From: Burkholderiales bacterium
GTDB lineage: Bacteria; Pseudomonadota; Gammaproteobacteria; Burkholderiales; SG8-41
Length of the DNA: 64,000 nucleotides
Direction: 5' to 3'
Assembly: GCA_035649495.1 (NCBI GenBank)
Contig: DASRJL010000014.1
Location: 138 to 64,137, forward strand
Shown here: positions 2,000-62,516 of the stretch, in pieces
How the letters are laid out: the number at the start of each line of letters is the position of its first letter
How positions within the stretch are numbered: position 1 is the stretch's first letter
Position numbers and translations under genes: made by a program
Notes under the pieces: generated by a model
The model's input: only the letters and a program-made list of their open reading frames with translations
Told to the model about the DNA's origin: nothing
The model's database searches: none

Positions 2000-2044
2000 A
2001 CCTGCCACCTCCTTCGGGAAACGTATCACGTATCGCCCTTGAAC

Positions 2045-2065
2045 GAGTCACGAGTCACGGACACG
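2045..2065. repeat. tandem heptamer array (GAGTCAC type)
   Basis: GAGTCAC GAGTCAC GGACAC, in the divergent region between 1016..1999 and 2081..3259. Confidence 0.6.
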
Positions 2066-2080
2066 CATTAAGATCTTGCT

Positions 2081-3259
<1,179 letters not shown>

Positions 3260-3268
3260 CCGGAAGAA

Positions 3269-3289
3269 GTGACACGTGATACGTGATAC
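3269..3289. repeat. tandem heptamer array (GTGAYAC x3)
   Basis: GTGACAC GTGATAC GTGATAC, inverted relative to the array at 2045..2065 on the other side of the gene. Confidence 0.6.
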
Positions 3290-3319
3290 GAATGGCGTGC
3301 TTCCGCCTTTCGCCTTCCG

Positions 3320-3514
3320 TCACCCGTCCTTCCTGCCGGCCCCGTGGATCATCTCGAACAACGCCTGGTTCGCTTCCTTCGCCTTCCCGAGCGGCGCCAG
3401 GACCTGGACCTGCTGTTCCTCGGTGAGCGAGGATGCGAGGGAGATGAACGCGCTCATCATCGCCAGGTTGCTTTCCAGAACGTTCGCTACGACGGCTCTC
3501 AATTCCTTGTTCAT
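3320..3514 (-). CDS. small hypothetical protein (64 aa, helical)
   Basis: ATG preceded by GAGGAGA. Non-repetitive composition. No recognisable family. Confidence 0.5.
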   Translation of the reverse strand: MNKELRAVVANVLESNLAMMSAFISLASSLTEEQQVQVLAPLGKAKEANQALFEMIHGAGRKDG

Positions 3515-3531
3515 GTGCTCTCCTCGAAGGA

Positions 3532-3659
3532 GTGACCCGTGACTCGTGACACGTTTCTCAACGATCCTAGCAGCAAATCCGGGGCCGAAAGCAAGGCAGT
3601 CGGGCTGAGTGTAAGATTTCGGTGCATTGACGGGTCACTGGTCACGAGTCACGTGTCAC
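3532..3659. repeat. inverted heptamer-array hairpin element
   Basis: Left arm is GTGACCC GTGACTC GTGACAC (3532-3552). Right arm is GGGTCAC TGGTCAC GAGTCAC GTGTCAC (3632-3659). The unique core is 79 nt. Lies in a divergent promoter region. Confidence 0.7.
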
Positions 3660-3675
3660 TTCTTGGGAGAACGCA

Positions 3676-4464
3676 ATGCCCTGGATCGAAGCAAACGGCG
3701 CCAGCCTGCGGTACGAGCTGTCCGGATCGGGAAAAGAAACCTTGGTGCTGATGCACGAGGCCGGCGGGTGCCTCGAAAGCTACGAGGACGCGCTGCCCGG
3801 ACTGGAGAAAGATTTCCGCGTGCTGCGCTACGACCAGCGCGGCTTCGGATTTTCGGAGAAGGTGCGGGAGCTCACCTTCGACGGCGTAGTAGCGGACCTG
3901 GCCGGACTCCTCGATGCGCTGAAGATCACCGCGCCGGTGCACGTGGCAGGGTGCGCGATGGGCGCCGATTTTTCGGTCGGATTCGCCGCGCGTCACCCCG
4001 GCCGGTTGGCGAAGCTCGTCCTGGCGAGCCCCAACATCGACAGCAATGCCGGACGCGGGCAGCAAAGCATCGAGCGCGCCGCGGTGGCCGAGCGCGAGGG
4101 GATACGCGCCGTCATGCAATCCAGCCACGACCGTTCCTATCCCGAGCACTTCCGCGCGCAGGATCCGGAGCGCTTCCGGCGCTACCAGTCGCGCTGGGTC
4201 TGCAACACGCCGGCCTCGTTCACCGCCGCGGCCCGCATGATGCTCGCGGTGGACCTCACGCCCGAATACCCGAAGATCAAGGCGCCGACGCTGGTCATAG
4301 GCGCGAAGCACGATGGGCTGCGTCCGCCGGAGAAAGCAGAACGCGTAGCCAAGGCCATCTCCGGCGCGAAGTACCTGCTGGCCGATACCGGGCACTTCAT
4401 GAACCTGGAGACGCCGCAGCTTTTTGCAGAAACGGTCGTAGCCTTCTTCAAATCAAAACTGTGA
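3676..4464 (+). CDS. alpha/beta-fold hydrolase (3-oxoadipate enol-lactonase-like)
   Basis: GGGAGA RBS. The LVLMHEAGG, RYDQRGFGFS and HFMNLE segments fit the alpha/beta hydrolase fold. The nucleophile elbow reads G-C-A-M-G instead of G-x-S-x-G. Confidence 0.85.
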   Translation: MPWIEANGASLRYELSGSGKETLVLMHEAGGCLESYEDALPGLEKDFRVLRYDQRGFGFSEKVRELTFDGVVADLAGLLDALKITAPVHVAGCAMGADFSVGFAARHPGRLAKLVLASPNIDSNAGRGQQSIERAAVAEREGIRAVMQSSHDRSYPEHFRAQDPERFRRYQSRWVCNTPASFTAAARMMLAVDLTPEYPKIKAPTLVIGAKHDGLRPPEKAERVAKAISGAKYLLADTGHFMNLETPQLFAETVVAFFKSKL

Positions 4465-4467
4465 CCC

Positions 4468-5154
4468 GTGATGGGAGTTGTAGTACTGCTCGCCCTCGTG
4501 CTCGGCGCTGCAGCGCTTCCTGCGGACGCACAGCAGCCCCCCTGGCAAAAAGAGATGGACCAGGCGCGGCGCAGTGCAGCCGCGGGAAACGAGGATATAA
4601 CCATTCTTACTTTCCCGGGACCCGAGAGCGCGCGAAGCGGCGTGTACGTCTTCTACAACGACCCGCGCCCGTTCTGCTATACGTACATGATTCCCGGAGA
4701 ATGGGTTCCGAGACCCAGAGAGCGCGCCTATTACTCGAAGGACGGCCGGAGATTCGCCGGGGTATTGTTCTGGCTGGCCAGGAACCTCGAGGGGGAGGAT
4801 GGCGCGACGCTGGTCGAGCGGGCCGGGAGCCGCATCACCAAGGCGCACCGGAAGCAATACGGAGACGCGCTGGCGGGGGTCGAGTTCGTGCCGTTCGAGT
4901 CTTCCCGCTCCGGCATCTGGCAGTGGCGCGCCGCGCCGATCACCAAGGGCGAATCGCGAATCAACTTCCCCGCAAAGCTCGTCGTCGACCTGAGTCCGGA
5001 CGCGGTTGCGCAGATTACAGTTGTCGGGACTTCGGACGACGAGCAGCTGGCTCTGGCCCGGCAGATCCTCGAGAGCCTCCGGACGACCAAGGACCCGGAG
5101 TGCTTTTTTCCCGTTCTCGAAAGCATGCACAAGGCACGCTACGAGAATCGATAG
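4468..5154 (+). CDS. hypothetical secreted protein
   Basis: Signal peptide MMGVVVLLALVLGAAALPADAQQ. No recognisable domain. Confidence 0.6.
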   Translation: MMGVVVLLALVLGAAALPADAQQPPWQKEMDQARRSAAAGNEDITILTFPGPESARSGVYVFYNDPRPFCYTYMIPGEWVPRPRERAYYSKDGRRFAGVLFWLARNLEGEDGATLVERAGSRITKAHRKQYGDALAGVEFVPFESSRSGIWQWRAAPITKGESRINFPAKLVVDLSPDAVAQITVVGTSDDEQLALARQILESLRTTKDPECFFPVLESMHKARYENR

Positions 5155-6610: not shown

Positions 6611-6637
6611 CTTCACGAGTCACGCGTCACGGGTCAC
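6611..6637. repeat. tandem heptamer array (NNGTCAC x4)
   Basis: CTTCAC GAGTCAC GCGTCAC GGGTCAC, just upstream of the candidate selenoprotein gene. Confidence 0.6.
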
Positions 6638-9776: not shown

Positions 9777-9954
9777 AAGGATGAAGGATGAACGTGGAAA
9801 GATGACCCTCACCTTCAGTGATAGTTGCTTGTCCCGGCCTTTCGGTACCCTCGGCCGGTAGCTTCCCGACCGGGCGGAGCGAAAGAGAGGGGCGCTTGAG
9901 CACGCGCAAAGCGTAGGGTCATCCTTCATCCTTCCGCCTTCATCCTTGTTCTTC
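9777..9954. repeat. inverted heptamer-array hairpin element (AAGGATG type)
   Basis: Left arm is AAGGATG AAGGATG AACGTGG. Right arm is CATCCTT CATCCTT CCGCCTT CATCCTT GTTCTTC. An inner stem pairs GATGACCCT with AGGGTCATC. Confidence 0.7.
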
Positions 9955-18091: not shown

Positions 18092-18361
18092 AGAACCTGT
18101 TTCATAACCAGGCACGTGTGCGACGGAGGCGAGGTGGGATGCAGGTCGAGGAGGAGAGCCCGAAGCAATATGTCGATATTGCGAGGGCTCCCGACAAAGA
18201 GATGCGCCCAGATCGCCCCGTCCCCTCCGGGGTTGCGGCCAGGACGGTCGTCTGCATCGTTGCCCTCCTTGACCATATCGACATATGGCCTTCGTCGGGC
18301 GCCTTGCATACGGTCCGTCCTGGCCGCAACGCATCACGCGCCTGGTTATGAAACAGGTTCT
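18092..18361. mobile_element. MITE-like 270-bp element, copy 1
   Basis: Terminal inverted repeats AGAACCTGTTTCATAACCAGGC ... GCCTGGTTATGAAACAGGTTCT. An internal imperfect palindrome includes ATATGTCGATAT/ATATCGACATAT. A near-identical copy lies at 28932..29201. Confidence 0.65.
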
Positions 18362-19360: not shown

Positions 19361-19395
19361 GTGATCAGCGATTGGTGATTTGCGATTGGACTCAC
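19361..19395. repeat. tandem heptamer array (GTGATTG type)
   Basis: GTGATCA GCGATTG GTGATTT GCGATTG GACTCAC, at the boundary of the lower-GC patch. Confidence 0.6.
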
Positions 19396-19399
19396 CTTA

Positions 19400-20581
19400 T
19401 TAAGAATTAACATGGGAACCTGGTCGTTCCCGCCTGTATATGGTGATACTGGATTGCTTACGGGGCGTCCTGATATCAAACACAATATCTTCATCGCGCG
19501 TTGTTTGCAGCGGACCGAATTGTGTGATTGCCAATATAGAACCATCCGGGGAAACGGCAATTCCGTGAGGAAAGCGAAGATGCGAAACCGGATTTTCAAG
19601 AATACGGCAAGGAGCCGCCTGAGTGATTCTATTAGCAACCTTATCAAAGGGATAAACCGTTACTCTGTCCGCCTCGCTATTTGACACGATCAAGAAATCT
19701 CCTTCACGAGACATTTTAATGTCTTCCGGCCTGAACAACCCTGTTATTTCTCCTTTAACTATTTGTCTCGGTGTCGATTGTATACTTCCCATTTCCAGAT
19801 CCAAATTGTAAATTTGAATGCTGTTCACATCCGAGAATGTCACCAGCAGACAACTCTCGTCCGGGGAAAAAGTAATTCCCTTGGGTATGCCCGGCAGTTC
19901 TTCTTCGTCGATAAGACTTAGGTGTTCGAGTATCGTTTCTTCTGAATTAAAACTAAAGAGGGCGACCCCCTTTTTTTGTCGCGCTGCGGCACCAAATGCA
20001 ATAGCCATAAATTTGCCGGATGGGGACATATCCATTCCGTGAGGCTTGTAAGCAGCCAGCACTTCTGGAAAATCAATGCAAGCGACAGGATCCCGTGAAT
20101 ACAACCCGTTTTCCGTACGCCGATAGATTGTAAGCGTCGCATTATTCCAGTTTGAAACGATGATCTTATTACCATCACCAGAGAAAACGGCATGCTGAGG
20201 CCCCCTAAGCCGCGCTCTTGGATTCTTAAGCACTTGAACAGTCCGGATTTTTCCTGCAGGGTCTATTCTAAAAATAGCCACTTTATGGGCCGTCGTGAAT
20301 GTCGCGCAAAACATTAATTCATGAGGATGAAACGCGACACTATTAATCAGACTATAAGCACGACAAGGATTCGCGATGCTATCAAAGGGCGTAGGGTCGT
20401 AAAACGCTGCAAAATGACCTCCTTTTTCAGACTCCACGTTCGCCGACGGGCGCATCCACCCCTCACTCTTTTGCAGCGATATTGACTTCGCCATCCCATT
20501 TGGTTCGATCTGCCACTCCTCCTTCCGCAGATAGCTGACCAGCTTCCAACCGATATGAAGCAGTCGGTTCTTGTCAATCAC
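19400..20581 (-). CDS. hypothetical beta-propeller-like protein
   Basis: Clearly lower-GC gene. Repeated blade-like segments (FSGDGNKIIVSN, MSPSGKFMAIAF, FSPDESCLLVTF, MSREGDFLIVSN, VSPDGSILAITQ). Confidence 0.6.
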   Translation of the reverse strand: MIDKNRLLHIGWKLVSYLRKEEWQIEPNGMAKSISLQKSEGWMRPSANVESEKGGHFAAFYDPTPFDSIANPCRAYSLINSVAFHPHELMFCATFTTAHKVAIFRIDPAGKIRTVQVLKNPRARLRGPQHAVFSGDGNKIIVSNWNNATLTIYRRTENGLYSRDPVACIDFPEVLAAYKPHGMDMSPSGKFMAIAFGAAARQKKGVALFSFNSEETILEHLSLIDEEELPGIPKGITFSPDESCLLVTFSDVNSIQIYNLDLEMGSIQSTPRQIVKGEITGLFRPEDIKMSREGDFLIVSNSEADRVTVYPFDKVANRITQAAPCRILENPVSHLRFPHGIAVSPDGSILAITQFGPLQTTRDEDIVFDIRTPRKQSSITIYRRERPGSHVNS

Positions 20582-20633
20582 GGTCTGCGACTCTCGCTGT
20601 CAACCGCAAAACCAAGCGTCGTCCTCCTGGGCC

Positions 20634-21638
20634 TCAAAACTGACGACCCATTGCTCGCCTTATGCGAAGCAGGAGCCACGAGAGACTCGGAATCCTCCGG
20701 ATTTTTCGCAAGATCCTGCTTGATAACAATGCATTGCGCTGAAAATGTCGGCCATCCATTCGTTCGAACGCGCTGTGGGGGACGATGTCATAGCGCTTCC
20801 TCATACGTGCAATTGCCTCCAGCGACTCGGACAAATTGTGCTCGACGTAGTCGATCATGGCCACCCAGGCAATATCGTTGCCAAGATGGAATGTGAGGCG
20901 CTCCTGGGTCATGCTCTTCGCACGATGCCCACTCCTTGCATCAAGTGCCATGAACAGCAGATAGTCGAAATGAGGCGCCCCGATGCAGCAGGTGCCCAGG
21001 TCAAGGTCTTGGACCAAGTTTTTGGGTATTACAAAGCAATCGTATCCAATCCCAAGAGGGCCGGAAGCCTCATACATTTGCTCCAATGAGCCTAGTGCAA
21101 GCGATGGGTCAATATTGCTGCGGTGCACAGTGAACGGGACGTCAGTTCCGAGTTTTCCGGTCACCAAATCGGCAAGCGCCAAATAGAAATCGGGTTTAAC
21201 CGAAATGTCCATGTTGCTGAAAATGACGTGCGACCCAAGGGAGCCTGAAGCGCCTGCGGTGAGCACATCCTCTATCAATGGAAACAGGCGCGGAGGCTTT
21301 AGTCGCTTGATATCCTGAATGGTGCGATTCAGGTAGGCGATCCTTCCTACCGGTTCTTCAACGGCACTCTCGTCTCCGGGCAGTATCACTGCGCAGCAAT
21401 CCACATCGAGGCCATGCGCGCGCGCGCGCGCGTGAGCTATTCTCAGGGTTTGCCATGTCACTCGGCTTGCAATCCAATGCCCAGAGTCGACCTTGGCACG
21501 AAAAGGATTCAGAATATGAGTAAAGGAGATGGGATAGGAATTTGAAACCACTGTTTTCACCGTTGCCGCCGCGAGGCTTAACGCCTCACGATCCAGAAGC
21601 TCGTCACCGCTCAGTTCAATCCACCGTGGTTCCGCCAT
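20634..21638 (-). CDS. hypothetical protein (334 aa)
   Basis: Lower-GC gene. Only a weak resemblance to GT-A nucleotide-sugar transferases (VIFSNMDISVKPDFY). Overlaps the 3' end of the upstream SDR gene by 23 nt. Confidence 0.55.
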   Translation of the reverse strand: MAEPRWIELSGDELLDREALSLAAATVKTVVSNSYPISFTHILNPFRAKVDSGHWIASRVTWQTLRIAHARARAHGLDVDCCAVILPGDESAVEEPVGRIAYLNRTIQDIKRLKPPRLFPLIEDVLTAGASGSLGSHVIFSNMDISVKPDFYLALADLVTGKLGTDVPFTVHRSNIDPSLALGSLEQMYEASGPLGIGYDCFVIPKNLVQDLDLGTCCIGAPHFDYLLFMALDARSGHRAKSMTQERLTFHLGNDIAWVAMIDYVEHNLSESLEAIARMRKRYDIVPHSAFERMDGRHFQRNALLSSRILRKIRRIPSLSWLLLRIRRAMGRQF

Positions 21639-22365
21639 CCACCACCAGCGTGTGCCCGGTCACGAAAGCGGCGCCGGGGCTCGCCAGATAGCAGACCGCC
21701 GCGGCGATTTCCTCCGCGGTGCCGAAGCGCCCCAGCGGTATCTTGCTCGTCACCAGCTTGCGCCGCACGGGATCCGCCAGCCCGGCGGCGCGGCTCGCCG
21801 TTTCCACCGTGCCCGGTGCCACGGCGTTCACACGTATGCCATGCTCCGCCCACTCCACCGCCAGCATCCTCGCCATGTGGGCGACCGCGGCCTTCGAGAT
21901 GCCATAGGCGGCGCGCTCCGCTATTCCGACCACGCCGAAAGTGGAGGCGATGTTGACGATCGAGCCCGGCCGCTTCGCGCTCACCAGGTGCCGCGCCACC
22001 TGCTGGCTCATGAAGAACGCGCCCGTCAGGTTGACGGACATTACGCCGTCCCACTCCTCGCGCGTCATGTCGAGCGCCATGCGCCGGAGCGGGACGCCCG
22101 CGTTGTTGACCAGCACGTCCACGCGGCCGAGGGTGTCGACGACGGCTGCCACGGCCCGCTCCACGTCGGGCTGGGAACGCACATCCAGCGCCAATGCCAG
22201 GCTGCGGCTGCCCGCAGCCTTGATTTTCCCTTCCGTCCCGGCGAGCGTTTCCGCGCGCAAATCCGTGACCGCCACGTCGCAGCCGTCGCGGGCGAGCCCC
22301 ACGGCGCAGGCCTGGCCGATGCCGTACGACGCGCCGGTGACGAGGGCGACTCTTTTCTCGCTCAT
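21616..22365 (-). CDS. SDR-family oxidoreductase (FabG-like)
   Basis: VALVTGASYGIGQA Rossmann motif, NNAG, and the YxxxK region (YGISKAAV). Confidence 0.9.
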   Translation of the reverse strand: MSEKRVALVTGASYGIGQACAVGLARDGCDVAVTDLRAETLAGTEGKIKAAGSRSLALALDVRSQPDVERAVAAVVDTLGRVDVLVNNAGVPLRRMALDMTREEWDGVMSVNLTGAFFMSQQVARHLVSAKRPGSIVNIASTFGVVGIAERAAYGISKAAVAHMARMLAVEWAEHGIRVNAVAPGTVETASRAAGLADPVRRKLVTSKIPLGRFGTAEEIAAAVCYLASPGAAFVTGHTLVVDGGTTVD

Positions 22366-22379
22366 ATCAGGGCAGTTGA

Positions 22380-22434
22380 ACAGGAGGAAACGGAGAAAAC
22401 AGAGCAGCCCTCTGTTAACTCTGTTACCTCCTGT
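22380..22434. repeat. imperfect hairpin built from short repeats
   Basis: ACAGGAGGAAACGGAGAAAACAGAG - CAGCCC - TCTGTTAACTCTGTTACCTCCTGT. Confidence 0.55.
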
Positions 22435-27801: not shown

Positions 27802-27853
27802 CCGTCACCGCCGGTCATCAATCACCGGTCACTGGTCACCGGTCACTGGTCAC
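27802..27853. repeat. tandem heptamer array (YGGTCAC)
   Basis: CGGTCAC TGGTCAC CGGTCAC TGGTCAC plus degenerate units upstream. The last unit supplies the stop codon of 27850..28791. Confidence 0.65.
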
Positions 27854-28791
27854 GCCGTTCCTACAATGGGCGCCAGCGCCGCCCCGATGCGCTGGGAGTG
27901 CTCCGGCGTGATCATGCCGCCCAGCAGTTCGCCGAAGCGCGGCTCACGCACGCCAGAGACGATGTACTGCCAGCGATAGGCCTTGAGGACGCCGGCGCGC
28001 AGGCGGTCCACTTGAGACGGGATGAACGCGCGCCCACAAACCGAGAGAAAGTAATCGACGTCCGCCGCAGCCTGGATCTGCACTATCCCGTCCACCGCGG
28101 CGACCAGCTCGATCAGGTCGTTCACGGCGCGGTCGCGCTCCGCAGGGTTCAGCTTCGCGTTTTCGCGGGTCCATTCGAGCTCGTCGATGATGGCGTGCTG
28201 GGATTCCTCCTTCCAGTGAAAGAGCAGCACGTCCTTGAAGAGGTCGGACAGGCCCGAATCCGGCTCCACGCTCTCGCGATAGTGCGCGAGAACGAACAAC
28301 TCGATATGGCAGGTGAGCGCGAGCACCGCCCAGGTGGACTTGCCGAGCACCGCGGAGGCGACCTCGTTGGGTTGCGGCAGGAACTTGTATCCCGGCGCCA
28401 TTTCCTCTGCCGTCAGGCGCTCGAGCCGCCGGAAGAGCTCCTGGTGCTTGATCTCCTCGTCGGTGAAGCGTACCAGTGCCTCGAGTGCCGACTGATCGCC
28501 GAGCCAGTGCTCCCGGCTCACGTCGAGCATCTTGGCGCCGATGAAGCGCTCGACCAGGGCGAACATGTTTGAATAGGTCCGGCCCTGGACCTGGGAGAGC
28601 AGCCGCCGCTCGCCCACGTCGAGGAAATCGAGCTGGTCGGCGAGCGAGAGCCCGTCGGGCAGGAACTTCTTCGAGAAATCGAACTTGCGGCCGCGAATCA
28701 CGTCGCGGTCTATGTCCCAGCGTATGCGCTTCGATACCTCGATGCACTTCGCGTAGCGGTTGTGGGTCTTCTGCTGTTGTGTGGCTTGCAT
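27850..28791 (-). CDS. ferritin-like diiron protein (putative oxygenase)
   Basis: Two E-x-x-H motifs (TDEEIKH, WKEESQH) with helical spacing typical of diiron carboxylate proteins. Confidence 0.65.
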   Translation of the reverse strand: MQATQQQKTHNRYAKCIEVSKRIRWDIDRDVIRGRKFDFSKKFLPDGLSLADQLDFLDVGERRLLSQVQGRTYSNMFALVERFIGAKMLDVSREHWLGDQSALEALVRFTDEEIKHQELFRRLERLTAEEMAPGYKFLPQPNEVASAVLGKSTWAVLALTCHIELFVLAHYRESVEPDSGLSDLFKDVLLFHWKEESQHAIIDELEWTRENAKLNPAERDRAVNDLIELVAAVDGIVQIQAAADVDYFLSVCGRAFIPSQVDRLRAGVLKAYRWQYIVSGVREPRFGELLGGMITPEHSQRIGAALAPIVGTA

Positions 28792-28931
28792 GCGTATCTC
28801 CCGGTGTGGTTGTTGAGCGATGAAGCGGTCGCCATTGTGACGAGCGCCGGAGCCGGGAACATGAGACAGGAGTCCCGGGACAGGGCCGCTTGCGCCCGTC
28901 CCGGGCCGGGAACAGCCGGGACCGTGGTCCT

Positions 28932-29201
28932 AGAACCTGTTTCATAGTCAGGCACGTGTGCGACGGAGGCGAGGCGGGATGCAGGTCGAGGAGGAGAGCC
29001 CGAAGCAATATGTCGATATTGCGAGGGCTCCCGACAAAGAGATGCGCCCGGATCGCCCCGTCCCCTCCGGGGTTGCGGCCAGGACGGTCGGCTGCATCGT
29101 TGCCCTCCTAGACCATATCGACATATGCCCTTCGTCGGGCGCCTCGCATCCGGTCCGTCCTGGCCACAACGCATCACGCGCCTGGCTATGAAACAGGTTC
29201 T
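28932..29201. mobile_element. MITE-like 270-bp element, copy 2
   Basis: Same length and orientation as 18092..18361. About a dozen substitutions and no indels by eye. Confidence 0.65.
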
Positions 29202-29273
29202 GAATGATCCCGGGTGGCGGTAACGGCTCGATGCTGGCATCATCGGTCGGCCACGACAACGAGCCGGGACCGG

Positions 29274-33245: not shown

Positions 33246-33285
33246 AGGTCACGGCTCACTGGACTGGTCACTGGTCACTGGTCAC
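33246..33285. repeat. tandem heptamer array (TGGTCAC)
   Basis: AGGTCAC GGCTCAC TGGAC TGGTCAC TGGTCAC TGGTCAC. Encodes the last codons and the TGA of 33275..34150. Confidence 0.65.
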
Positions 33286-34178: not shown

Positions 34179-34316
34179 GCCACGGAAACACACGGACGTA
34201 CACGGAAAAAAGCAGAGCGAAGCACCGGATCGGGACATACCACCGTCCGATCGGATCATCCCGTTTCGCTCCAAATCGCAATTCTGTCCGTGTGTTTCCG
34301 TGTGATTCCGTGGCCA
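34179..34316. repeat. inverted-arm element family E (CACGGAA/ACACGGA arms), copy 1
   Basis: GCCACGGAAACACACGGACGTACACGGAA ... TTCCGTGTGATTCCGTGGCC. Confidence 0.65.
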
Positions 34317-38347: not shown

Positions 38348-38457
38348 GTGATTGGTGATTCGTGATTGGTGATTGGTCCCGGTACAGCCGACCGGCTTGT
38401 CGCGCAGCGCGCTGCTGAGCCTGAACACCATTCACTAATCTCCAATCACCAATCACG
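38348..38457. repeat. inverted heptamer-array hairpin element (GTGATTG type)
   Basis: GTGATTG GTGATTC GTGATTG GTGATTG ... CAATCAC CAATCAC. Lies in a divergent promoter region. Confidence 0.7.
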
Positions 38458-38507: not shown

Positions 38508-39518
38508 ATGAAAACCAATAGCACGGACGCCGGTCACTGGTCACCGGTCACTGCTCACGCCTTCGGAGCTGTGGTCGCCGCCTGCCTCGCCATGGTGTCC
38601 TGGCCCGGGTACGCGCAGAACTATCCGGTGAAGCTCGTGCGCCTGATCGTCCCGCTCGCGCCGGGCGGGCCCAGCGACATACTGGCGCGCACCATGGCCC
38701 AGAAGATGACCGAGGGGTTCATGCAGACCGTGCTCGTGGACAACCGCACCGGCGCCGGGGGCACCATCGGCACGGACATCGCCGCGAAATCTCCCGCCGA
38801 CGGTTACACCATATTGCTGATCGCGGTGGCGACCTACACGATCAACGCCAACCTCTACAAAAAGCTGCCTTTCGACCCGCGCAAGGATCTCCTGCCAGTG
38901 TCGGTGCTCGCTGGCGCGCCGTTGATACTCACCGTGCATCCCGCGCTGCCGGTCAAGTCCATGAAGGAGCTGATCGCGCTCGCCAGGGCTCGGCCCAAGG
39001 ATCTCAATTACGGCTCCGGCGGCAGCGGCACCGGACCGCAGATGTACATGGAGCTCCTCAAACTCCGGACCGGCATGAGCGTTACGCACGTCCCGTACAA
39101 GGGAACGGGCCAGGCGATGCCCGATCTCATCGCCGGCCACGTGCAGGTGGCGCTCTTCAACATGATCGCGTCGCTGCCCGCAGTGCAGTCGGGAAAGCTG
39201 AAGGCCATCGCGGTGACGGGCCCGAAGCGCTCCGCTCGCCTGCCCGATACGCCGAGCTTCACGGAAGCCGGGGTCGCGGGCTTCGAGGAATACGGCGGCC
39301 ACATGATCATGGCGCCCGCGGGCGTGCCGGGGGACATCGTCGCGCGGCTGCACAAGGAGTTGATGCGGGTGCTGCAATCGCCCGACGTGAAGAGCCGCCT
39401 CGAGCAGGAGGGCGCCGACATCATCGGCAACACGCCCGAGCAGGCGGCTCAATTAGTCCGCGGCGACATGGACAAGTGGGCGGAGGTGATCAGGAAGACG
39501 GGGATGAAAGTCGAGTGA
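38508..39518 (+). CDS. Bug-family substrate-binding protein
   Basis: GGAGAA RBS. VRLIVPLAPGGPSD and DNRTGAGG motifs. The N-terminal residues GHWSPVTAH are encoded by a heptamer array. Confidence 0.85.
   Translation: MKTNSTDAGHWSPVTAHAFGAVVAACLAMVSWPGYAQNYPVKLVRLIVPLAPGGPSDILARTMAQKMTEGFMQTVLVDNRTGAGGTIGTDIAAKSPADGYTILLIAVATYTINANLYKKLPFDPRKDLLPVSVLAGAPLILTVHPALPVKSMKELIALARARPKDLNYGSGGSGTGPQMYMELLKLRTGMSVTHVPYKGTGQAMPDLIAGHVQVALFNMIASLPAVQSGKLKAIAVTGPKRSARLPDTPSFTEAGVAGFEEYGGHMIMAPAGVPGDIVARLHKELMRVLQSPDVKSRLEQEGADIIGNTPEQAAQLVRGDMDKWAEVIRKTGMKVE
38531..38558. repeat. tandem heptamer array inside the 5' end of a CDS
   Basis: CGGTCAC TGGTCAC CGGTCAC TGCTCAC, within the N-terminal coding region of 38508..39518. 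Confidence 0.65.
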
Positions 39519-47680: not shown

Positions 47681-47701
47681 CGTGAACCGTGATCCGTGAT
47701 C
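47681..47701. repeat. tandem heptamer array (CGTGAWC)
   Basis: CGTGAAC CGTGATC CGTGATC, between the PhyH stop and the caspase-like gene start. Confidence 0.6.
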
Positions 47702-47719
47702 CGAAGCATGCGGCTCCAG

Positions 47720-48628: not shown

Positions 48629-49312
48629 ATGGACTATGAAATCAGGCTGTACATGGACCAGCTGGCGCCGCAGGCAGTCGTGCAGATGCCGCTGCACTCC
48701 GCTCCGGTGCGGGCGATCTACGTGATTTCCGGCGGCCTACGGCTGGGCTCCGGCGGGGCCACGGCTACGCTCGGCGCCAACAGCGCCTGGCACAACCGCG
48801 GCGCCGTGCGCGCCGGGGCCGGACATCTCACGACCCTCGCGTTGCGCTGGGAGCTTGCTGGCCCCGGGGAGCCGGATGCTCCCCTCGCGGGAGATGGCGT
48901 GACGAGCACGCGCCTGCTCTCGGCGAGGCTGGCGCTCGATCCCGCTCAACCGTACCTGTTGCGCTGCGATCGCGTGGATTTTCCGCCCGGCGGCGAGGCG
49001 CTCCTGCACACGCATGCAGGCGGCGGCATACGCTGCCTGCTCTTCGGCGCCATCGAAATCGAGACGAAAGGCAAGCGCACCCCGTACGGGCCGCTCGCGT
49101 CCTGGTTCGAGGCCGGACCCGATCCCGTTTACGCCGCCGCCTCGAAGACCGAGCCGACCGCTTTCGCCCGGGTCATGATCCTGCCGCGCTCTTTGCTCGG
49201 GAAATCGTCCATCGCTTACGTCAACGCCGAGGACGTCGCGAAGCCCAGGAGCCAGCAGTATCAGGTGTTCATTGATGTCGCGGTTGAGCTTCCGCCCAAC
49301 CCAAACGAGTGA
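48629..49312 (+). CDS. cupin-domain protein
   Basis: Real part of track ORF 47696..49312, starting at MDYEIRLY. FPPGGEALLHTHAGGGIRCLLFG is a cupin motif. Confidence 0.65.
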   Translation: MDYEIRLYMDQLAPQAVVQMPLHSAPVRAIYVISGGLRLGSGGATATLGANSAWHNRGAVRAGAGHLTTLALRWELAGPGEPDAPLAGDGVTSTRLLSARLALDPAQPYLLRCDRVDFPPGGEALLHTHAGGGIRCLLFGAIEIETKGKRTPYGPLASWFEAGPDPVYAAASKTEPTAFARVMILPRSLLGKSSIAYVNAEDVAKPRSQQYQVFIDVAVELPPNPNE

Positions 49313-49425
49313 TGAGTACTGGTGATGAATACTGGTGATGGCAACTGGTGATGAAAAGGCGCGCTACTCGTACATCACCATTTTTCATCACTATTTCTCA
49401 TCACCATCTTTCATCACCATTTTTC
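49309..49425. repeat. hairpin with 13-nt periodic arms
   Basis: Left arm is (G)GTGATGNNNACT x4, right arm is CATCAC(C/T)ATNTNT x4. GGTGATG/CATCACC stems alternate with mismatched 6-mers. The array begins at the TGA of 48629..49312. Confidence 0.7.
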
Positions 49426-49476: not shown

Positions 49477-50010
49477 ATGGTAATGCTGTACGACCCGACG
49501 GCGCCGCGGCGCGAGGGCGGCGACACGGGAGAGCGCAAGACGCTCGCTGGGCTGAAAGGCGCGGTGGTCGGGTTCATCGACAACGCCAAGCCCAATTTCA
49601 ACCACCTGGTGGACGATCTCGCCGAATTGCTCGAAAGCCGCTACGGCGTGCGCGCGGTCGTGAAGCGCCGCAAGCGTTCCGCGTCGGTGCCGGCGCCCGA
49701 GGAGATGCTCCGGGAAGTCGCCAGTCAGTGCGACCTGGTGATCACCGGCTCGGGCGACTGAGGATCCTGCTCGTCGTGGAGTGTCCACGACAGTGTAGAA
49801 GCTGCGAAGCAGGGACGCGCCGCCGTGGCAATCTGCTCGACCGCCTTTCTCACGCTCGGCCGCGCGCAGGCGCGGGCACTGGGCAATCCCGACCTGCCGA
49901 TCGCGGTTATCCCGCATCCGTTCGGCGTGCGCTCGCGCGAGGAAGTGCGGCAGATGGCGGAGAAGTGCGTGGACGACATCGCGAAGCTCGTTGCATACCA
50001 GGAACCCTAG
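49477..50010 (+). CDS. UGSC-family selenoprotein (TGA 49759-49761 read as selenocysteine)
   Basis: GAGGAG RBS. Track ORFs 49477..49761 and 49825..50010 share one frame and are separated only by this TGA. The junction reads VITGSGD-U-GSC-SSW. A hairpin follows the TGA. Confidence 0.8.
49768..49795 (+). promoter_or_regulatory. putative bacterial SECIS hairpin for TGA 49759
   Basis: GUCGUGG at 49773-49779 pairs with CCACGAC at 49785-49791. Apical loop is AGUGU. The stem extends through CU/AG with a bulged C at 49772. Confidence 0.55.
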
Positions 50011-50148
50011 CCACGGAATCACACGGACACACGGAAGTGATTTGCTCTGGGGCGCTTTTCATGATGGCAGGACGCTTGCATGTACGTTCTGTCGATGTCG
50101 TCTCTATGGTGCTATTTTCGTCCGTGTAATTCCGTGTGTGTCCGTGGC
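50010..50148. repeat. inverted-arm element family E, copy 2
   Basis: GCCACGGAATCACACGGACACACGGAA ... TTCCGTGTGTGTCCGTGGC. Same arm vocabulary as 34179..34316 with a different core. Confidence 0.65.
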
Positions 50149-50152
50149 TGAA

Positions 50153-62407: not shown

Positions 62408-62422
62408 CGGGAGTTCCTCGCT

Positions 62423-62508
62423 GTGAGCTATCAGCTATGAGCTATGAGCCATAGGCTATGGGCTACGACTATGCTGTTCAAGCTCACAGCGCACGGCTCA
62501 CAGCGTAC
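62423..62508. repeat. tandem heptamer array (GAGCTAT type) plus a 14-mer direct repeat
   Basis: GAGCTAT CAGCTAT GAGCTAT GAGCCAT AGGCTAT GGGCTAC, followed by GCTCACAGCGCACG GCTCACAGCGTACG. Confidence 0.65.
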
Positions 62509-62516
62509 GGCCCAAC

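Follow-up and report, generated by a model that had tools for sequence, protein, structure and literature searches.

Mrazek and co-workers are said to have described, in 2007, an excess of heptamers among the long simple sequence repeats (SSRs) of bacteria, and reportedly supposed that 7 nt corresponds to the grip of a polymerase on DNA. The closest known counterparts of the repeats treated here are the G-rich heptameric intergenic repeats found in Xanthomonas (GGGAATC) and Nostoc (GGGGAYT), whose arrays mostly have four units and are intergenic in 89-93% of cases (Rehm et al., 2015; PMC4692102). In these organisms, 70-75 convergent pairs of arrays occur per genome while divergent intergenic regions are depleted of them, and the G-rich strand is the coding strand downstream of genes and the non-coding strand upstream of genes (PMC4692102). 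These repeats show no functional association, their length and sequence vary between sister species, and the four units have been linked to formation of a G-quadruplex (G4) (Rehm et al., 2015; PMC4692102). Another kind of heptamer, TAACTGA, is known from Beggiatoaceae, cyanobacteria and Bacteroidetes, and in Beggiatoaceae it is proposed to regulate translation via an RNA-binding protein (MacGregor, 2015; PMC4679880). Heptads can also be read on DNA. Omega (ParB_pSM), a ribbon-helix-helix protein of pSM19035, binds contiguous WATCACW heptads with one dimer per heptad, and omega/parS needs at least four contiguous heptads for full activity, with dimers 1 and 4 placed on the same face of DNA (PMC9499535).

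How does a locus made of two inverted heptamer arms in a Burkholderiales genome compare with these systems? The locus lies in a stretch of 64,000 nucleotides (hereafter the window, in whose positions all coordinates are given) of a 5.94-Mb metagenome-assembled genome (MAG; 65% GC, 238 contigs, 92.5% complete; G000 in comparisons below) from an uncultured lineage of soil and rhizosphere. We class this locus and its many relatives in the genome with the known heptameric intergenic repeats, as a variant with numerous families that are mostly non-G4, and their architecture and polarity are those reported for the Xanthomonas repeats (PMC4692102). The original prediction set the design apart from classical REP/BIME and MITE families; to take it as unprecedented is an overstatement, since four-unit arrays, pairs and polarity had all been described in Xanthomonas (Rehm et al., 2015; PMC4692102). 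Both sets share period 7, intergenic location, a mode at four units, convergent pairs, polarity relative to genes, depletion from divergent regions, variation between related species and the lack of any tie to gene function. While Xanthomonas and Nostoc each have one G-tract family per genome, the present genome has at least 26 families, mostly non-G4; its arrays are about 7-fold more abundant (1,287 versus about 185), and families with periods of 8-13 nt obey the same rules. G-tracts mark the sub-type of Rehm and colleagues rather than the whole heptamer class, and no G3 tract exists in the dominant units here, GTGACCN, GTGATTG, AAGGATG and GAGTKTT. Most families (GTGACCA, GTGATTG, GAGTTTT and others) are unable to form a G4, and thus the G4 does not explain the four-unit and polarity rules throughout the class.

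The focal locus and other arrays in the window

The focal locus is flanked by divergent genes, a 64-aa ORF on the minus strand and an alpha/beta-hydrolase gene, and consists of the following parts, to which, as to all features listed below, no strand is assigned.

3532..3554, left arm, GTGACCC GTGACTC GTGACAC (read in the sequence; TRF; inverted-repeat scan)
3555..3629, unique core of 75 nt (blastn; promoter and terminator scan)
3630..3659, right arm, (AC)GGGTCAC TGGTCAC GAGTCAC GTGTCAC (TRF; inverted-repeat scan)

Units and coordinates of the arms read exactly as originally described, and TRF assigns period 7 to both arms. In the inverted-repeat search the arms are 24 nt long and 92% complementary, and upon folding they pair over about 22 bp (z -4.35, -3.9). 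Each arm lies upstream of one of the two genes: 17 nt separate the left arm from the start codon of the 64-aa gene (minus strand, start at 3514), and 16 nt separate the right arm from the hydrolase ATG at 3676. By blastn the core has no second copy in the genome, scanning it for a consensus promoter or terminator gave none, and Rfam gave no family match anywhere in the window. The genes on both sides are ordinary metabolic genes, and synteny is not conserved in the hydrolase upstream regions of 35 relatives. Within 3200-3800 there are 0 terminator-like sites, that is, no stem followed by a U-tract. Arrays also occur before start codons and between divergent genes, and an intrinsic terminator was rejected on these grounds, in agreement with the earlier view that the arrays are not simply terminators.

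The possibility that such arrays are assembly artefacts had been raised at the outset. Four metagenome runs (2012, 2017) separately yielded Logan contigs in which the region 3200-3800 shows 0-1 substitutions and no indels; since these independent contigs agree in this way, the focal arrays are not an artefact of assembly. Phase-variable contingency SSRs have hypervariable copy numbers and are located in surface or virulence genes, either in the promoter or in the ORF, and neither property holds at the focal locus: this candidate was rejected because the consensus copy number is identical in the four metagenomes and the neighbours are ordinary metabolic genes. The one single-unit change seen in this comparison is in a related strain (run X14). 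As for transcripts, three metatranscriptomes contain 5-8% of the sampled words, which are too few for a reading of expression.

Seven further loci of the window had been placed with the focal one in a group of eight paired loci.

9777..9948, MITE-like element of the AAGGATG family (TRF period 7; blastn copies with sharp ends)
22380..22434, ACAGAG/GGAGAAAAC family pair with a period of 9 nt, 25-nt arms 5 nt apart (TRF; inverted-repeat search)
34179..34314, period-10 pair of the CACGGAA family, unique core (TRF; inverted-repeat search)
38348..38457, period-7 pair of the GTGATTG family, arms 38348-38377 and 38426-38457, unique 48-nt core
49309..49425, GTGATG-N7 family pair with a period of 13 nt, arms 76-84% complementary
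50009..50149, second CACGGAA pair (family as at 34179), period 10, unique core (TRF)
62420..62511, GAGCTAT heptamer array of 7.9 units, then a direct repeat with a 14-nt period (TRF)

The inverted-repeat search found inverted arms, 76-92% complementary, at all eight loci, and seven have tandem units in both arms. The exception is 62420-62511, whose heptamer array is confined to the left part; the right part, a direct repeat with a 14-nt period, is partly complementary to it, so that the locus is a partial inverted pair and departs here from the predicted design. The paired arms can fold (z -6.6 for the pair at 38348, besides the focal values), while units facing each other in hairpin register show no covariation. 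The element at 9777 has a left arm at 9777-9807 (AAGGATG AAGGATG AACGTGG AAAGATG ACC), a core of about 108 nt and a right arm at 9916-9948, and about 7 dispersed copies with 75-92% identity share its sharp ends. The loci had been thought unlike MITE families, which fits most families, whose cores are unrelated, and does not fit this MITE-like element.

The one-armed arrays of the window are as follows.

2043..2059, ACGAGTC x2.4, solo arm belonging to the GTGACTC family (TRF)
3269..3290, solo arm GTGACAC GTGATAC GTGATAC (TRF), missing from related strains
3300..3319, CTTCCGC array (AAGGCGG family), pointing away from a minus-strand gene that ends at 3320
6613..6637, solo arm of GTCAC type (TRF)
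19368..19389, solo arm GCGATTG/GTGATTT (TRF)
27811..27853, solo arm, six GGTCACY units, in overlap with the stop codon of gene 27850..28791 (minus strand)
33247..33285, solo arm GGTCACT x5.9 (TRF)
38532..38558, solo arm GGTCACY x3.9 (TRF)
47681..47703, solo arm CGTGATC x3.3 (TRF)

The arm at 3269..3290 begins 9 nt past the stop codon of a phosphoesterase gene. Eight of the nine one-armed arrays listed earlier are recovered by TRF, and the ninth, at 39515, has two units only.

Abundance, placement and polarity across the genome

The design seen in the window, inverted arms of tandem units around a core together with many one-armed arrays, was found genome-wide as anticipated, and so was the excess of period 7 over periods 6 and 8. 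TRF on the whole genome detected 1643 arrays of period 7, whereas periods 6 and 8 gave 337 and 284. With genes called by our own codon-usage method (87% coding), 1,287 period-7 arrays are intergenic, and their density is 1719/Mb in intergenic versus 61/Mb in coding DNA, with 43/Mb and 84/Mb as the intergenic densities of periods 6 and 8. When the intergenic regions were shuffled, 1220 real period-7 arrays faced a mean of 14, while the numbers were 33 versus 5.4 for period 6 and 54 versus 20 for period 8. As originally described, the arrays lie between tandem, convergent and divergent genes, occupying 23%, 27% and 12% of the respective intergenic regions. The repeats occupy about one quarter of the intergenic regions and break MAG assemblies, and a classical 270-nt MITE is also present in the same genome. 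A CRISPR consists of 23-47-nt repeats and unique spacers of similar length while the present arrays are contiguous 7-mers with no spacers; they are not CRISPRs, as had been stated.

The units had been taken to be specific for each locus, which turned out to be wrong: one unit is shared by tens to hundreds of loci, at least 26 unit families exist in the genome, and arms recur at 60-200 loci each, including identical compound arms of 31-33 nt at many loci. GTGACNN, the superfamily of the focal locus, has 317 arrays and 1,123 units, in which positions 1-5 (GTGAC) are 96-98% invariant while positions 6-7 vary even inside one array, and the GTCAKGN superfamily has 244 arrays. Copy number is narrowly distributed: 48% of arrays have 3.5-4.5 units, the median is 3.9, and there is no geometric tail. 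TGA or TCA occurs in 77% of units, as compared with 21% expected. Smaller families with periods of 8-13 nt accompany the period-7 arrays.

Arrays are set close to the edges of genes. An array lies within 12 nt of the stop codon in 599 genes (11%), the usual distance being 0-10 nt, and the median distance of arrays upstream of start codons is 16 nt. Arrays with TGA in the sense strand start at a median of 3 nt past the stop, and among 241 genes ending in TGA, 116 have the stop codon itself as the first unit and in register. Furthermore, the arrays are polar: within a family the same strand reads outward from the neighbouring gene edge, whether this edge is a start or a stop (72:2 and 49:1 in two families, for example), and 736 of 809 arrays (91%) follow this rule. 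The outward strand has more G than C in 20 of 26 families. Polarity amounts to 95% at convergent stops and 95.5% at divergent starts and is equally strong at tandem junctions, with a range of 88-97% over all contexts, and solo arms obey it equally in every gene context. The families of longer period follow it as well (30:2 for period 9, ACAGAG; 20:0 for period 8, GCCAAG; 68:1 for period 10, CACGGA; 99:3 for period 13, GTGATG). Selection by Rho-dependent polarity was considered as a cause of this orientation and rejected because polarity is equal at convergent gene ends.

Pairing, cores and turnover

Inverted pairs number 241 and take up 477 of the 1,287 arrays (37%), with a median core of 30 nt, and the arrangement X->...<-X is preferred over the reverse one (135 versus 53). 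The remaining 63% of arrays have no partner and are mostly truly solo. Solo arms are not decayed pairs; this idea was rejected since just 14% of them have even one core motif of a partner. When the two arms of a pair are compared unit by unit, a putative relation that preserves the order of units, first noticed by eye at two loci, beats the hairpin register (63 versus 34 loci) but does not beat a shuffled order (p=0.11).

Cores of the GTGACNN, GTGATTN, GAGTKTT, GAGACTR and GGATTCN families are no more similar to each other than shuffled ones, and similarity among GTCAKGN cores is weak. AAGGATG-family cores are related, 31% of their pairs scoring 12 or more as compared with 0.2% after shuffling. 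The AAGGATG elements, with sharp ends and related cores, come near to MITEs such as Correia/NEMIS and ERIC, and the loci in general share with MITEs the terminal inverted repeats around a short core and the presence/absence polymorphism among strains. Unlike in MITEs, most cores are unrelated and most arms stand alone, no autonomous parent was found, and no target-site duplication or common target motif exists in the flanks of 40 AAGGATG-type elements. As for the parent, genes bracketed by inward-pointing arms were considered and rejected, being ordinary and mutually unrelated housekeeping genes; the exceptions to the polarity rule flank genes for UvrC, acetoacetyl-CoA synthetase, hydantoinase, AsmA, PBP1C and similar proteins. 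The genome also yielded no multi-copy transposase.

REP/BIME and REPIN-RAYT systems resemble the present arrays in being short, intergenic and present in hundreds of copies, frequently in inverted doublets with hairpin potential, mostly at gene 3′ ends, in species-specific families and with no target-site duplication. REP units are individually imperfect palindromes, whereas the arms here are direct tandem arrays and hairpins can form only between two arms. Is a RAYT the mobilising enzyme? The Y1 domain (PF01797) has 0 matches in this genome (92.5% complete), while the controls gave matches in 6 genomes. Y1 genes are common in the family (51 of 61 genomes), and 18 Y1 loci of array-rich relatives have classical GGGGTCAG-type REPs on their flanks instead of GTGA- or AAGGATG-type heptamer arrays. 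Y1 copy number correlates weakly with array load (rho 0.32) and with gross exceptions. RAYT/REP mobilisation was therefore rejected. It is to be noted that a gene flanked by repeats could be missing from a MAG of 238 contigs and 92.5% completeness.

Comparison of orthologous regions, proposed at the outset for detecting changes of copy number, revealed gain and loss of units, arms and whole elements. A strain about 99% identical to the present one (run X14) contains, at 3531, exactly one additional GTGACCC unit; it is without the 30-nt GTGAYAC arm at 3261-3300 and without the whole 220-nt intergenic region holding the element at 9777. In G017, the spacer orthologous to the one with the element at 9777 is 76 nt long and has no arms. 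Genes of G015 and G000 are about 80-85% identical while their compound 31-33-nt arms are 97-100% identical, and complete arm-core-arm elements stand in G015 at places where the G000 genes overlap by ATGA (stop/start) or are 1-5 nt apart. One and the same intergenic region may hold different families in these two species. Even at four sites where both have AAGGATG elements the cores are unrelated (scores 6-8, equal to background), and yet a G000 core from a non-orthologous locus matches one of the G015 cores with 97% identity. All 33 genus genomes contain TGA-phased heptamer arrays, and so do 56 of the 61 family genomes, in nine of nine genera; repertoires are species-specific, and loads run from 0 to more than 500 matches among congeners. 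The pattern of three GTGACCN units was found in 0 of 200 other genomes sampled across the order.

Reading of the arms and its meaning

What are these arrays? Our preference, tentative and held a little below an even chance, is that they are selfish, dispersed modules of REP/MITE-like nature that are recognised on DNA via their phased heptads. We infer that a protein recognises the arms at the level of DNA and that they spread by copy and paste. The building block would be an arm of about four phased units, each with an invariant core and two free positions, and the modules would be non-autonomous, a putative trans-acting protein reading the phased cores on double-stranded DNA with one binding unit per heptad. 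Four heptads may be favoured as in the omega/parS heptad system, the 21 bp from the first to the fourth unit corresponding to two helical turns. Arms, and sometimes entire arm-core-arm elements, would be copied into new intergenic sites or overwrite old ones, and they would survive only at gene edges, where they are probably harmless. The long hairpin of paired arms would then be a by-product of two opposed arrays and not a selected feature. This reading draws on the scale and period specificity of the arrays, the dispersal of their families, the constraint on a phased core with a mode at four units, the gain and loss of arms and elements as wholes, the patchy distribution with depletion from divergent (promoter) regions, the lack of signs of selection for pairing, and the omega precedent. 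Several observations do not sit easily with such modules: no mobilising or binding protein was found (no Y1 in G000, no multi-copy transposase), there are neither target-site duplications nor a common target motif, most cores, the focal one included, are unrelated between copies as those of ordinary MITEs are not, the polarity of solo arms needs an assumed polar insertion or strong selection, and the consensus copy number of the focal locus is stable over four metagenomes.

The omega system serves here as an analogy of how phased heptads can be read, and not as a statement of membership. Omega heptads likewise are contiguous 7-bp units with a conserved core, direct or inverted, at least four of them being needed for full activity, and WATCACW may be compared with AATCACC/AATCACG and NNGTCAC of the present genome. 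Omega acts at a handful of plasmid promoter sites and has a known cognate protein, while more than 1000 chromosomal sites of many families are found here. The placement of dimers 1 and 4 on the same face would offer a physical rationale for the mode at four units and for a 5-nt core followed by a 2-nt linker. A more specific reading is that a putative directionally polymerising protein reads the arms on duplex DNA, one subunit per heptad and four per functional unit, and either marks gene boundaries or drives copying and overwriting that need no transposase and leave no target-site duplication; in this specific form we consider it unlikely.

The same kind of protein could belong to the host, with the heptads as platforms for an omega-like or ribbon-helix-helix-like polymer that marks or insulates gene boundaries, for example as polar roadblocks of transcription. 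We regard such architectural or regulatory host sites as unlikely, although much of the evidence suits them: the 5-nt core is invariant and the 2-nt linker free, the four-unit mode matches the need of omega-parS for at least four heptads, orientation to the nearest gene edge is strict in all contexts (88-97%), arrays sit 0-10 nt from stops and about 16 nt from starts, and a binder of duplex DNA would see both orientations as one site, which fits the symmetric rule. It is difficult to reconcile with host sites that positions are poorly conserved, arrays being present or absent between strains or species and families being swapped in one region, that some congeners have almost no arrays, that elements stand within former operon junctions (ATGA overlap), where a block of transcription is harmful, and that more than 26 families need many cognate proteins or a very tolerant one. 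Nor was a candidate protein found: the search for the omega family (PF07764) gave 0 matches in 33 genus genomes, with the control genomes failing to register as well. Alternatively, paired arms may act as stem-loops in transcripts or single-stranded DNA, namely 3′-end stabilisers, RNase III or processing sites or factor-dependent terminators, as has been proposed for REP/BIME. The long stems of the focal locus (about 22 bp; z -4.35, -3.9) and of 38348 (z -6.6), enrichment past stop codons and in convergent regions, and transcription of the Xanthomonas repeats (PMC4692102) would agree with this, and insertions in operon junctions might be looped out. We find it distinctly unlikely, since 63% of arrays have no partner, no U-tract terminators are seen, each 5′ UTR of the divergent focal locus would contain a single arm, and the preference for X->...<-X is not predicted. 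In particular, selection for RNA pairing was rejected: units in hairpin register match at 5.74/7 versus 5.78/7 after shuffling, without covariation, and G.U and A.C mismatches in the sense strand number 88 versus 99 (p=0.46), most mismatches being non-wobble. The Beggiatoaceae and cyanobacterial STRR repeats, for which RNA-level reading comes from the Beggiatoaceae model, are also tandem heptamers (2-6 copies), intergenic, often just before starts and patchy in phylogeny, while the Beggiatoaceae have one dominant unit with 169 direct sets and one indirect set, as compared with the many families and 241 inverted pairs here. The strand rule found here argues against a single reader at the RNA level.

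Do the arrays need a reader at all? They might be a mutational by-product, tracts arising and growing by slippage of polymerase, as Mrazek and co-workers reportedly supposed, and the second arm arising via intrastrand template switching, and the clean gain of one GTGACCC in the related strain, the heptamer excess in many bacteria (PMC4692102) and the stop codons standing in register as first units (116 of 241 TGA-stop cases) are what such a process would give. We nevertheless judge it quite improbable, because the copy-number peak at four is narrow, the units belong to a few genome-wide families instead of being locus-specific, identical arms are dispersed, arms of 30 nt and elements of 172 nt come and go whole, polarity is strict, and families of period 8-13 follow the same rules; moreover, slippage would homogenise entire units, while variation is confined to positions 6-7 with a core 96-98% invariant. 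A use in translation is also conceivable: as 7 is not a multiple of 3, three TGA units stop every frame past a gene and could catch ribosomes that read through or shift frame. The 77% of units with TGA or TCA and the TGA-sense arrays that begin at a median of 3 nt after the stop, often including it, speak for such a trap. It is largely refuted by families with reversed or absent TGA, and we consider it very improbable: the GTCAKGN superfamily (244 arrays) has TGA on the opposite strand after stops, GAGACTR, AGAGAGG and CACGGAA have no TGA at all, the same arms stand before start codons in the opposite sense, and the rule common to families (20 of 26) is G-richness of the outward strand, not TGA. 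Selfish modules recognised on DNA thus remain our preferred, tentative reading.

Excess of heptamers in intergenic DNA of bacteria has been reported since 2007 without explanation, and the present genome is an extreme, multi-family case of it. The rules of the class, four units, outward G-rich polarity, convergent pairs and placement at gene edges, hold here without capacity for G4 and at periods of 8-13, which removes the sole structural explanation yet offered for the four-unit rule. The repeats differ even between strains about 99% identical, and their patchy distribution within the family provides a comparative-genomics route to the trans-acting factor. If it is true that a polymerising protein reads the arms, this would explain the heptamers, the four units and the outward polarity in Xanthomonas, in cyanobacteria and in this family of Burkholderiales alike.

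Order of units between facing arms

By eye, variant units stand at equal left-to-right rank in both arms of the focal GTGACNN-family pair (3532-3659), of the AAGGATG MITE-like element (9777-9948) and of the GTGATTG-family pair (38348-38457), that is, their order is preserved and not mirrored. Genome-wide, the order-preserved alignment was favoured over the hairpin register at 63 versus 34 loci (p=0.007), and it was no better than a shuffled unit order (p=0.11). In some elements of the relative G015, the left arm is doubled, with two AAGGATG/AACGTGG modules in tandem that make about 10 units, and faces a single right arm:

G015 L072:1837-1905, doubled-left-arm element
G015 L075:2432-2502, doubled-left-arm element

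A classical repeat and variable stretches of the window

Other features of the window
4468..5154, gene for a 228-aa protein, no Pfam match
18092-18361, MITE-like repeat, copy 1
28931-29202, MITE-like repeat, copy 2, 96% identical to copy 1
19400..20581, minus strand, long ORF
20634..21638, minus strand, long ORF

The classical MITE-like repeat, about 270 nt long with terminal inverted repeats of about 33 nt, is present in about 19 copies in the source genome and in at least 40 in G017 of the same genus. The related strains of runs X14 and X10 are devoid of the copy at 28931-29202. The X14 strain, about 99% identical, seems to lack the gene 4468..5154 or to have other sequence in its place, because one of its contigs skips 657 nt and joins 4509 directly to 5167. 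Both long ORFs, rejected by the codon-usage gene caller, lie within a stretch (19400-22400) whose GC content is 55-60% against 65%, and which may have been acquired horizontally.

Cold-shock proteins and REP heads

One protein alone occurs in three near-identical copies in the source assembly, a CspA-type cold-shock protein of 68 aa:

C208:15090-15296, CspA-type cold-shock protein gene, plus two paralogues

On single-stranded nucleic acid, a cold-shock domain spans about 6-7 nt. Csp proteins were reportedly named among candidate heptamer binders by MacGregor in 2015.

In relatives (loci L084-L101 of G236, G250, G002, G006, G245, G001, G241 and G249), genes for Y1 (RAYT-like) transposases, 230-315 aa long, have REP-like sequences in inverted orientation at their flanks. 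The head of these sequences is GGGGTCAG(G/A)C, to which the GTCAGGG/GTCAGGC heptamers of the source genome are similar. This likeness hints that this particular heptamer family may have been derived from a REP head.
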